This document shows positions 30,428 to 32,729 of a DNA stretch of 64,000 nucleotides, one piece after another; the first letter of the stretch is position 1; every line of letters starts with the position of its first letter. Under the pieces are notes generated by a model. That model was not told the DNA's origin and searched no databases. It saw only the letters and a program-made list of their open reading frames with translations. The translations under genes and the position numbers were made by a program. Source of the stretch: Escherichia phage Ptacy1479; sequence record PQ863256.1. One strand, 5' to 3'.

Positions 30428-30637
30428 TTAATATTCCTTGATTGGGGATACCACAAAACCACCAAGAGGTGAGGTAAAAGATTTATGTAAGCTTATTTTG
30501 CTATAAATCTTTGGAGCCATCTTAAGAGCCTTCTTAAAACGACGAGCATCTTTACGAGTAGCAAAATGCTCTGTAACAGGTATAGAATGGTCTTGGTAGA
30601 TATAATACATCACCGTCCAGTATTTTCCCATAATCAA
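30428..30637 (-). CDS. small protein, member of a ~65 aa paralogue family (TRKxAR..KK ... Y-terminal)
   Basis: Shares TRKDARRFKK and C-terminal Tyr with 32114..32729 triplet. Confidence 0.3.
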   Translation of the reverse strand: MIMGKYWTVMYYIYQDHSIPVTEHFATRKDARRFKKALKMAPKIYSKISLHKSFTSPLGGFVVSPIKEY

Positions 30638-30906
30638 ACACCTAGTGCAGTAGTTAAAAATGCTTTCAGGTTTGCCTCAGTCTGCATACCAGAGAGGCTG
30701 TAGTGTGCGCCACTGTTACGGTCAGGTACGACGAAAGCGGGTATGCTTCGTACACCATATTTAACAGCTTGTTCACGACCATCTCCTTCAAGGATATTGA
30801 TCTCTTCCACTTCTACATCAAACTCCCTAACAACCCTCTCAAAGGTGGGAGCCATTGCTTTACATGGAGCACACTGATCACTATAAAACTTAATTACTTT
30901 AGACAT
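30634..30906 (-). CDS. thioredoxin-like protein
   Basis: CxxC active-site-like FYSDQCAPCK near N-terminus of a 90 aa thioredoxin-fold-sized protein. Confidence 0.6.
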   Translation of the reverse strand: MSKVIKFYSDQCAPCKAMAPTFERVVREFDVEVEEINILEGDGREQAVKYGVRSIPAFVVPDRNSGAHYSLSGMQTEANLKAFLTTALGV

Positions 30907-31155
30907 GTAAATCCTTATGCAGTCAGGAGGTGAAGCAGGAACGGGATAACAACAGCTACGATAACCATGATGGTTGATGCTGTTTGAATCTCACCTTTCT
31001 TATCAGGGGTTTCTTCAATAAGCTTACCAGAAGCCCAATAAATACCACCACCAATAAAGATAGCCCAAATACCCCATACGATTGCTGATAACATATATCT
31101 ATATCCTTATAAATAAGTTCGCCCCACCTCGGGTTAGGAGACAGGGCGGAGGTTT

Positions 31156-31767
31156 TTAGTAAGACACGTCGCCACTTGAATGGGACATGTTGCTCTTGAC
31201 GAAGTAGCAATACTTGCCAAGACCTTCATTAATTTCTTGAAGCATACTCTGATCGACAGGGTAGGATGCTAAATCGCCATCAAACTCATCCATCTTCTCA
31301 ATAATACACATCAAGGTCATGCACATATCAGAGAGCATACCGTCCATGTCTAGATCAGCATTACCCTCTGAAAACCAAGCATGGGAGAGGTAGTTAGCCG
31401 CTGTAGCATCCACCTTAACACAGTGATATCGCATACGTTCAGCAATACGATCTCCTACTTGTCGTGCGTAATCTTCCATCTCATCAAACATACCATGAAC
31501 ACCCTGAAATCCTGCACCAGAGACGTTCCAGTGGTAGTTTTTAGCTTTGATATGCAAGAGTTCCATGTTAGCTTGTAAGCAGCTCAGGATGTGTTCTAGG
31601 CTGTTTCCACTAATCATACCCTGCATTGTTTCAAGGCGAGAGATTGAAAGCTCAGACCGGTCTAACACACTATAGCTGTCACGACCAATCTCAGGTAAAT
31701 CAAAAACATTCTTATGCATTTGGGTTTTCTCCATCAAGTTCAACTGAATTAGCAACATTACGTGCAA
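31156..31767 (-). CDS. Dps/ferritin-like protein (start probably at an internal Met)
   Basis: LHIKAKNYHWNVSGAGFQGVHGMFDEMEDYARQVGDRIAERM resembles the Dps ferroxidase helix pair (HW...H...E..). Confidence 0.45.
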   Translation of the reverse strand: MHVMLLIQLNLMEKTQMHKNVFDLPEIGRDSYSVLDRSELSISRLETMQGMISGNSLEHILSCLQANMELLHIKAKNYHWNVSGAGFQGVHGMFDEMEDYARQVGDRIAERMRYHCVKVDATAANYLSHAWFSEGNADLDMDGMLSDMCMTLMCIIEKMDEFDGDLASYPVDQSMLQEINEGLGKYCYFVKSNMSHSSGDVSY

Positions 31768-32041
31768 TATTATCCATTACCTGCTGGGTAATTACGATGC
31801 AGTTCTGCGGGTCTACTGACTTAGAACGCCCCATTTCAGGGTCATACACCTTAACTCGTTTAGCAGTTGAACCTGTAACCTGAAGAACCTTCAATAGATA
31901 TCCCTGATTACCAATAGACCAAGCAACAACATCACGATTCTTGATAAAGCGACCAAGCATATCACGATGATAAAACTGTTGCATCACCTTGGATTTTGTA
32001 ATCTCTTCAGTGGGCGGGGCCACTTTACTCAAATCTAACAT
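31712..32041 (-). CDS. hypothetical protein
   Basis: 109 aa ORF with promoter-like motif about 40 nt upstream. Confidence 0.35.
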   Translation of the reverse strand: MLDLSKVAPPTEEITKSKVMQQFYHRDMLGRFIKNRDVVAWSIGNQGYLLKVLQVTGSTAKRVKVYDPEMGRSKSVDPQNCIVITQQVMDNIARNVANSVELDGENPNA

Positions 32042-32080
32042 AACTCTCTCCTGTAAAATACAAATTCTTATTGTACTCTA

Positions 32081-32089
32081 TATACATTT
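32081..32089 (-). promoter_or_regulatory. AAATGTATA promoter-like motif (variant of TAATGTATA)
   Basis: - strand AAATGTATATAGAG about 40 nt upstream of ATG 32041. Confidence 0.3.
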
Positions 32090-32113
32090 GAGAGTTACCA
32101 TATCTACTACCAA

Positions 32114-32323
32114 TCAGTAGTAAATTACTTTAGACATAAAAGAACCCGAGCTAGGGTCTTCGTACCAGCGATGAATGTCAGCACTTTTAACAGTTCCTAT
32201 TAGAGCTTTCACATTCTTTTTAGCGACACGAGCCTCTTTGCGAGTGTTAAACAGTTTGATATTATCTTTACCTAAGTGTTGTTTCTGTTCCCAAACAACA
32301 CGAACAGCCCACATCTTTTTCAT
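32114..32323 (-). CDS. small paralogue family protein (69 aa)
   Basis: W.VR...TRKEARVAKK ... YY pattern shared with neighbours. Confidence 0.35.
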   Translation of the reverse strand: MKKMWAVRVVWEQKQHLGKDNIKLFNTRKEARVAKKNVKALIGTVKSADIHRWYEDPSSGSFMSKVIYY

Positions 32324-32532
32324 TAGTAATGTACCTTTCCGCTGATATAAATACGACCAGAGGAATACTCCTTGGCCTTATGGATACTAATGCTCTTAGT
32401 TAAGTCCATATTGAACATAGACTTTTTAAAATCTCGAGCTTGTTGACGGGTGGGCAGTGCAGTCATAGTCATACCACCTGATGCCCACTTAATCTTCGCT
32501 AACCAGAACTGTCTCATGGTGATTGGTCTCAT
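32323..32532 (-). CDS. small paralogue family protein (69 aa)
   Basis: TRQQARDFKK ... HY pattern; start overlaps neighbour stop. Confidence 0.35.
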   Translation of the reverse strand: MRPITMRQFWLAKIKWASGGMTMTALPTRQQARDFKKSMFNMDLTKSISIHKAKEYSSGRIYISGKVHY

Positions 32533-32729
32533 TAATAATAAACCTTACTATTTGCCATAAAAGCACCTTCGCTATTCATGAAAGCTTTACCAATACTAAC
32601 CTTGTTAAGTCTAAAAGTAGACTTGTATTGATTTTTGACCCTACGTGCGTGCTCTCGAGTATTAACAAAATCTACAGCTACCAACTCTCCAGACGTGTTA
32701 TCATGTACACGAACAATCCACTTTTTCAT
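32532..32729 (-). CDS. small paralogue family protein (65 aa)
   Basis: MKKWIVRV...TREHARRVK ... YY pattern. Confidence 0.35.
   Translation of the reverse strand: MKKWIVRVHDNTSGELVAVDFVNTREHARRVKNQYKSTFRLNKVSIGKAFMNSEGAFMANSKVYY

Follow-up and report, generated by a model that had tools for sequence, protein, structure and literature searches.

Four small genes of Escherichia phage Ptacy1479 are, with near certainty, true and ancient paralogues that make up a single lineage-restricted protein family, PHROG 4939. They lie in the stretch of 64,000 nucleotides (nt) of sequence record PQ863256.1 that was analysed as a whole (the window), which its sequence identifies as a Kuravirus genome (phiEco32-like; Gordonclarkvirinae). 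All four open reading frames (ORFs), which an initial annotation made from the DNA letters had singled out, were found on the minus strand. They are referred to here as paralogues D, C, B and A, listed with length in amino acids (aa), isoelectric point (pI) and match to the family profile:

32532..32729, minus strand: paralogue D, 65 aa, pI 10.2; orthologue of phiEco32 gp71 and SU10 gp71; phrog_4939 E = 5.4e-27
32323..32532, minus strand: paralogue C, 69 aa, pI 10.6; orthologue of phiEco32 gp70 and SU10 gp70; phrog_4939 E = 2.2e-27
32114..32323, minus strand: paralogue B, 69 aa, pI 10.1; orthologue of phiEco32 gp69 and SU10 gp69; phrog_4939 E = 1.8e-26; last gene before a 72-nt gap
30428..30631, minus strand: paralogue A, 67 aa, pI 9.9; between the thioredoxin gene and thyX; phrog_4939 E = 8.5e-22

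Each protein matches the profile over its full length (profile positions 1-67 of 67), with E-values from 8.5e-22 to 2.2e-27. Among themselves the four, which stand alone at ~8 kDa apiece, share 25-34% identity over ~65 residues, or 26-28% in a MAFFT alignment in which a Trp, Thr, Arg, Ala, Arg, Lys and the terminal Tyr are invariant. Pairwise identity as low as this would by itself fit a chance resemblance of unrelated or noncoding short ORFs, a reading to which we assign a negligible probability. Smith-Waterman scores of the pairs stood at 4.9-9.4 standard deviations over 2000 shuffles, with 0-3 of the 2000 shuffles equalling the observed score. In a noncircular, leave-one-group-out test, hidden Markov models (HMMs) were built from other phages' orthologues of a single paralogue and run against all six-frame ORFs of the window (1315 of them); after its own type, each model ranked the remaining three paralogues highest (E 1.5e-6 to 3.2e-3; best noise 0.13). 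An HMM of the whole family found exactly four members within the 64 kb. The relationship among these ~65-69-aa proteins that the initial annotation had proposed is thus significant both on formal pairwise alignment and in HMM searches. Together with a ratio of nonsynonymous to synonymous substitution rates (dN/dS) below 1, Shine-Dalgarno (SD)-like runs before each ATG, synteny conserved in ~100 genomes and confident, identical predicted folds, these tests refute chance similarity. As to synteny, the order D-C-B between the dCTP deaminase gene (dcd) and the 109-aa ORF/Dps gene recurs, with like junctions, in phages Paul, phiEco32, SU10 and KBNP1711.

For the fourth gene, which had been placed at 30428..30637, the ORF stands and the start moves: translation most probably begins at the ATG at 30631 (MGKYW..., 67 aa) and not at the TTG at 30637, because residue 3 of the longer form is where the PHROG alignment starts, and 67 aa is also the length of the Paul and KBNP1711 orthologues. 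At the D-C and C-B junctions, the sequence TAATG overlaps stop and start codons by 1 nt each, while an ATGA overlap joins D to a 75-aa ORF upstream. Each ATG has an SD-like, GG-rich run ~10 nt before it, of the AAGG type in B, C and D; for C and B, this run is part of the codons for the conserved C-terminal "K-V" of the paralogue ahead. Conservation of the 1-nt C-B overlap in KBNP1711, ECBP2 and EK010, which belong to other genera, suggests that at least C and B are made together, in keeping with the coupled expression that had been surmised for the triplet.

Predicted fold and structural comparisons

AlphaFold2 models of B (pLDDT 86.6, pTM 0.71) and A (pLDDT 92.4, pTM 0.78) have the same topology, beta-beta-alpha-beta-beta, with the order beta1 (~residues 2-11), beta2, one helix (residues 28-39 in B), beta3 and a beta4 that runs to the C terminus. 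The predicted fold of each of the four proteins is thus a four-stranded sheet packed on a single helix, a statement of which we are nearly certain.

Alignments of 28-33 divergent members show no variation at W5, T27, R28 and R32, and conservation of at least 90% at A31, K35 and the terminal Tyr. These positions give structural meaning to the three features by which the proteins had originally been grouped. That is, the N-terminal Trp-containing strand is beta1 of both models; the TRxxARxxKK segment is the single helix, with T27 at its N terminus as a Thr N-cap; and the C-terminal aromatic residue is a Tyr in 118 of the 124 collected homologues. The spacing of R28, R32 and K35/K36 (i, i+4, i+7/8) places them on one helix face. 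All 124 homologues are basic, with pI values of 9.0-11.1 (median 10.1), and the four window proteins carry net charges of +7 to +10.

Searches of solved structures returned no specific relative, with Z below 6 throughout, sequence identities of 3-18% and Foldseek E-values against the PDB of at least 0.22. T4 Dmd, AcrIIC3, PII-like proteins, PsaD and a topoisomerase III domain share with the family model a generic two-layer alpha/beta resemblance; since they span unrelated functions, no functional information can be drawn from them. Several named folds were considered and set aside. The SpoVT/AbrB swapped-hairpin DNA binders are likewise beta-beta-alpha-beta-beta, and the family gave no match to the Pfam SpoVT/AbrB (MazE_antitoxin) model. 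Ferredoxin-like, ACT and PII-like proteins have two helices in the order beta-alpha-beta-beta-alpha-beta, which is not the order of the family. Judged from sequence and model topology, GIY-YIG was rejected for the small size of the proteins and their lack of conserved acidic or catalytic residues, SPOR and HicB-N for a different element order, and CsrA for a different topology.

Two further likenesses deserve comment. The T7 protein Gp2 has the element order beta-beta-alpha-beta, similar to that of the family. This 64-aa inhibitor of Escherichia coli RNA polymerase (PDB 2WNM) is also an early phage protein of similar size, and the two can be brought into a superficial register (KKFWATV...ETLDEALE versus KKMWAVRV...TRKEARV). 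With the query sequence verified against 2WNM, hhalign gave a probability of 2% and there was no PDB sequence match at E up to 10, and homology to Gp2 was rejected. The chemistry also differs: Gp2 is acidic, whereas the PHROG 4939 proteins are basic without exception (124 of 124), with the invariant Arg pair and conserved Lys on the helix in place of a negatively charged functional surface of the Gp2 type. The helix in turn recalls the arginine-rich motifs of lambda N and of HIV Rev ("TRQARR") in being Thr-capped, with Arg at i and i+4 and more basic residues following, a likeness that we take as a lead only. Arginine-rich motifs are short peptides that fold on RNA, whereas the family helix is predicted to sit in a folded domain and to bury one of its faces on the sheet.

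Distribution, constraint and timing of expression

The family genes sit in a leftward-transcribed block for replication and nucleotide metabolism, with genes for a primase/helicase, a 3'-5' exonuclease, a nucleotidyltransferase, dCTP deaminase, a Dps-like protein, thioredoxin, ThyX, PhoH and DNA polymerase. Two of these genes mark the slots in which family members are found:

32934..33467, minus strand: dCTP deaminase gene (dcd), a conserved anchor; the tandem array D-C-B lies just downstream in the inspected loci
29756..30412, minus strand: ThyX thymidylate synthase gene; the second family slot (gene A) is directly upstream, as it is in the Grimontviridae phage PKM.Lu.22.1

Over the 3.8 kb surrounding the family genes, the DNA is 92-96% identical to Kuravirus Escherichia phages, with phage Paul as the top match (95.8%). 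The Paul counterparts are gp066 and gp071-073, and the window proteins are 75-100% identical to hypothetical proteins of sequenced kuraviruses; the family is thus one already catalogued, both as PHROG 4939 and as hypothetical proteins in ~100 GenBank genomes. A tblastn search of GenBank phages found the C-type in 98 records, the B-type in 94 and the D-type in 64 (of ~98 Gordonclarkvirinae records), and the A-type in ~19 records in a closely related form plus ~21 with a divergent copy, all of them Escherichia or Shigella Gordonclarkvirinae. Gene A has a counterpart in Paul, WFI101126 (100% identical), KBNP1711 and others, and none in phiEco32 and SU10.

An exhaustive HMMER search over 1.84 billion cluster representatives returned 28 representatives at E up to 1e-3, all of them stand-alone proteins of 47-79 aa with no other domains, and no link to a larger family. 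Two indexed searches, one with a more divergent profile, found unannotated proteins only, with long contigs of ~70-80 kb, and Foldseek against BFVD pointed to uncharacterised look-alikes in the 7-11/GAP52 group and in an Aeromonas phage. Where the most divergent members could be placed, they occupy the same two slots, just downstream of dcd or directly upstream of thyX, as seen in Paul, phiEco32, SU10, KBNP1711 and four metagenomic contigs; the dcd slot of divergent genomes holds 2-3 tandem copies, again with 1-nt overlaps. Beyond Kuravirus-like genomes, one relative of the Grimontviridae, PKM.Lu.22.1, carries the family: one member lies directly upstream of thyX, a second after the DNA polymerase gene, and none after dcd. 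On this comparison of genomes, the family is an old one, restricted to phiEco32-like podophages and relatives of these, and has had several copies since early in its history. The libraries and papers searched hold no function, structure or experiment for PHROG 4939, and the literature on phiEco32 gp69-71, their paralogues and Kuravirus anti-defence yielded no functional data.

Against phiEco32, SU10 and KBNP1711, the proteins D, C and B are 55-94% identical, compared with 91-100% for the products of dcd, the 109-aa ORF, the thioredoxin gene and thyX, and 80-98% for Dps. Nei-Gojobori dN/dS is mostly 0.07-0.41 for the family and 0.00-0.13 for the flanking genes; B versus Paul gave 0.73, at a dS of only 0.025. 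By these ratios the family is under purifying selection, and the genes are hence real and functional, yet it is several-fold less constrained than the surrounding enzymes.

As for timing, promoters of the phage sigma factor phi32_gp36, with the consensus tAATGTAtA, have been described upstream of phiEco32 genes 6, 13, 26, 40, 58 and 68 (PMC8948821). The window holds a candidate at the corresponding place:

32081-32089, minus strand: phage-sigma promoter-like element AAATGTATA, an 8/9 match to tAATGTAtA, within the 72 nt that separate B from the 109-aa ORF

The motif by itself is not significant, with 18 matches in the window versus 20.6 expected; what counts is where it lies, at the place of the promoter described ahead of phiEco32 gene 68 (PMC8948821). 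In SU10, the boundary between early and middle genes has been placed between CDS 69 and 68 (PMC4281155). From this boundary and from the promoter-like match directly downstream of the triplet, we infer that D, C and B are the last genes of a long early unit driven by host sigma70. Gene A, which the same element separates from the triplet, would belong to the middle class with the Dps-like, thioredoxin and ThyX genes. A scan for sigma-70 promoters over 29500-35500 found fewer sites than expected by chance, which argues against an internal host promoter for the triplet. The family proteins are not among the 34 detected in SU10 particle preparations and are hence not structural.

Overall, the initial annotation was correct in its observation and its cautious interpretation. 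The start codon of A was corrected, A falls in another transcription class than the triplet, and the family turned out to be the already catalogued PHROG 4939, with D, C and B as phiEco32 gp71, gp70 and gp69.

Candidate roles

Our best guess, a tentative one that we would not put at even odds, is that the family consists of small nucleic-acid-binding accessory proteins that act through their basic helix; its basis is the conserved high pI and the basic stripe along the helix. The exposed Arg/Arg/Lys stripe would contact the phosphate backbone of DNA or RNA, possibly joined by basic residues on the open face of the sheet, and the proteins would act at the early-to-middle switch, when replication starts. 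The paralogues may have diverged in target, or they may assemble as hetero-oligomers. Consistent with such a role, basic character is kept across the family while the sequence drifts to ~25% identity, and the invariance of the same few residues in all paralogues suggests a common ligand. The family also keeps its place in the replication and nucleotide-metabolism block, at dcd or thyX. C and B are present in nearly all records and retain their 1-nt overlap in other genera, a pattern more in line with a core than with an optional role, and these two behave as core genes of the replication block.

Several points weigh against nucleic-acid binding. Basic charge would equally suit binding to an acidic host protein. 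The exposure of the Arg/Arg/Lys face, with A31 and the hydrophobic i+3/4 positions as the buried face, is deduced from sequence periodicity and not from model coordinates, and the proposed timing is drawn from homology to phiEco32 and SU10. Searches of Pfam, NCBIfam and PDB sequences gave no family match (PDB at E up to 10). The family also evolves faster than its neighbours, at 55-96% versus 91-100% identity (dcd, the 109-aa ORF, thyX and the thioredoxin gene; Paul, phiEco32, SU10 and KBNP1711), and fast evolution, paralogue expansion, variable copy number and early expression are typical of host-interaction and anti-defence genes.

On the main rival reading, the paralogues would be host-takeover or anti-defence inhibitors. 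Each would bind an acidic host-protein surface and block it; examples of such targets are a defence nuclease, a nucleic-acid-binding cleft and an element of RNA polymerase. The paralogues would have diversified in an arms race against host targets that vary. We consider this, arms race included, rather unlikely, at about one chance in four. In its favour, the proteins are small, stand-alone and early-expressed, and lack enzyme-like motifs. They evolve faster than all neighbouring core genes bar the adjacent nucleotidyltransferase gene, with dN/dS ~3-5 times higher. Their presence and copy number vary (A in its close form in ~19 records, D in 64 of ~98, 2-3 copies in the dcd slot), and they adjoin that variable nucleotidyltransferase, orthologues of which give weak matches to the Pfam model Gad2. 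The Gordonclarkvirinae moreover resist restriction-modification systems without a known inhibitor (PMC11990801). Against inhibition speaks the distribution, as C and B are found, with synteny, practically throughout three genera and the family extends to a Grimontviridae phage; that the same four residues are invariant in all paralogues points to one common ligand rather than to many diverging targets. Known DNA-mimic inhibitors of restriction, such as Ocr and ArdA, are strongly acidic, and the family, at pI 9-11, is the opposite. Anti-defence families gave no match in Pfam and NCBIfam, which include several of them; no dedicated search was made, the PADLOC models being of defence proteins.

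An improbable alternative, to which we give roughly one chance in eight, is that the proteins are non-catalytic subunits or regulators of the phage machinery for replication, dNTP synthesis or DNA modification. Their partners would be dCTP deaminase, ThyX, thioredoxin, the nucleotidyltransferase and DNA polymerase, and D, C and B might form a hetero-oligomer whose ratio translational coupling keeps fixed. In nearly every inspected genome the family has its place right after dcd or right before thyX, which speaks for such a partnership, as do the 1-nt stop/start overlaps conserved across genera and the universal C-B core pair. Adjacency is not strict, however: a copy at thyX is missing from phiEco32 and SU10, and in PKM.Lu.22.1 the second copy follows the DNA polymerase gene and none follows dcd. 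Nor would tight obligate partners be expected to drift to 47-75% identity next to enzymes conserved at 95-99%, and HNH endonuclease genes and unrelated small ORFs are found in these slots as well, which may therefore be no more than permissive insertion sites.

A further, more specific reading ties the family to a phenotype. According to the BASEL study, Gordonclarkvirinae are highly resistant to restriction-modification with no known modification pathway or inhibitor; that study points to the dcd and nucleotidyltransferase genes and suggests that the nucleotidyltransferase may take part in a DNA modification behind the resistance (PMC11990801). The family proteins, which would be made together with dCTP deaminase and the nucleotidyltransferase, might be the missing factor, either by coating replicating phage DNA or as a specificity or scaffold subunit of a DNA-modification pathway. 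This is a long shot; we found nothing that links the proteins to the phenotype, and they are candidates. If true, they would represent a new kind of basic, non-mimic restriction-evasion protein.

Neighbouring features and the standing of the family

Other features of the locus and the window are the following:

32726..32953, minus strand: 68/75-aa ORF, phrog_2347 (unknown function), between dcd and D; not a family member
31712-32041, minus strand: 109-aa ORF, phrog_10984 (unknown function), gp68 orthologue; first gene past the phage-sigma promoter-like element
31120-31148, minus strand: strong terminator-like hairpin of 11 pairs (7 G-C) with a T-rich tail behind it, between the Dps-like gene, which it directly follows, and a 59-aa membrane-protein gene
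33480-34883, minus strand: nucleotidyltransferase gene, 467 aa; weak PolyA_pol head-domain match, under the Pfam cut-off
29210-29609, minus strand: two small ORFs downstream of thyX, a 77-aa phrog_4452 ("anti-restriction nuclease") protein and a 62-aa protein
20598-20606 and 26988-26996, minus strand; 11225-11233 and 20670-20678, plus strand: sites that match the phi32_gp36 consensus, TAATGTATA, exactly

The 68/75-aa ORF is present in Paul and SU10, absent from phiEco32 and, by the ATGA overlap, start/stop-coupled to D; judged by eye, its product appears acidic and largely helical. At its position KBNP1711 has a different small gene and other genomes have an HNH endonuclease gene, which makes this a site that takes up insertions. 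The 109-aa ORF, which overlaps the start of the Dps-like gene, is conserved far above everything nearby, its product being 100% identical in Paul, phiEco32, SU10 and one metagenomic contig (dN = 0). The hairpin at 31120-31148 could be an internal terminator, or else an RNA-stabilising or processing hairpin inside the middle unit.

Among the large genes of the block, that of the nucleotidyltransferase is the most variable, with 83-93% identity within Kuravirus and 38% to KBNP1711; the Gad2 (anti-Gabija) matches, faint as they are, come from its metagenomic orthologues. The 62-aa protein downstream of thyX has weak, sub-cut-off Pfam matches to two models, one for a zinc finger and one for Lar restriction alleviation, and both it and the 77-aa protein are of possible interest in view of the restriction resistance of Gordonclarkvirinae. 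Further small ORFs at 28488-29213 on the minus strand have a strand-like "MK.W." N terminus (MKTLWTLD... at 29010-29213; ...MKVWVLTRA... at 28488-28805). They do not match the PHROG 4939 profile, and may be the first paralogue family that the initial annotation implied when it counted the present one as the second. Judged by where they lie, the four exact TAATGTATA sites are probably the counterparts of middle and late promoters published for phiEco32; the two near 20.6 kb point away from each other and mark the place where transcription changes between the leftward and the rightward direction.

Kuraviruses are common coliphages in therapeutic use, and their molecular biology is poorly studied. 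With the present analysis, three to four of their "hypothetical proteins" gain a defined family, a confident predicted fold, invariant residues to mutate and a probable expression class, and the family is flagged as a candidate for a role in DNA or RNA binding or in host interaction. As matters stand it is one among many uncharacterised small phage families, ordinary phage "dark matter" whose defined features ease experiments. Should it explain the restriction resistance of these phages, or prove to be a new nucleic-acid-binding fold, it would be of real interest.

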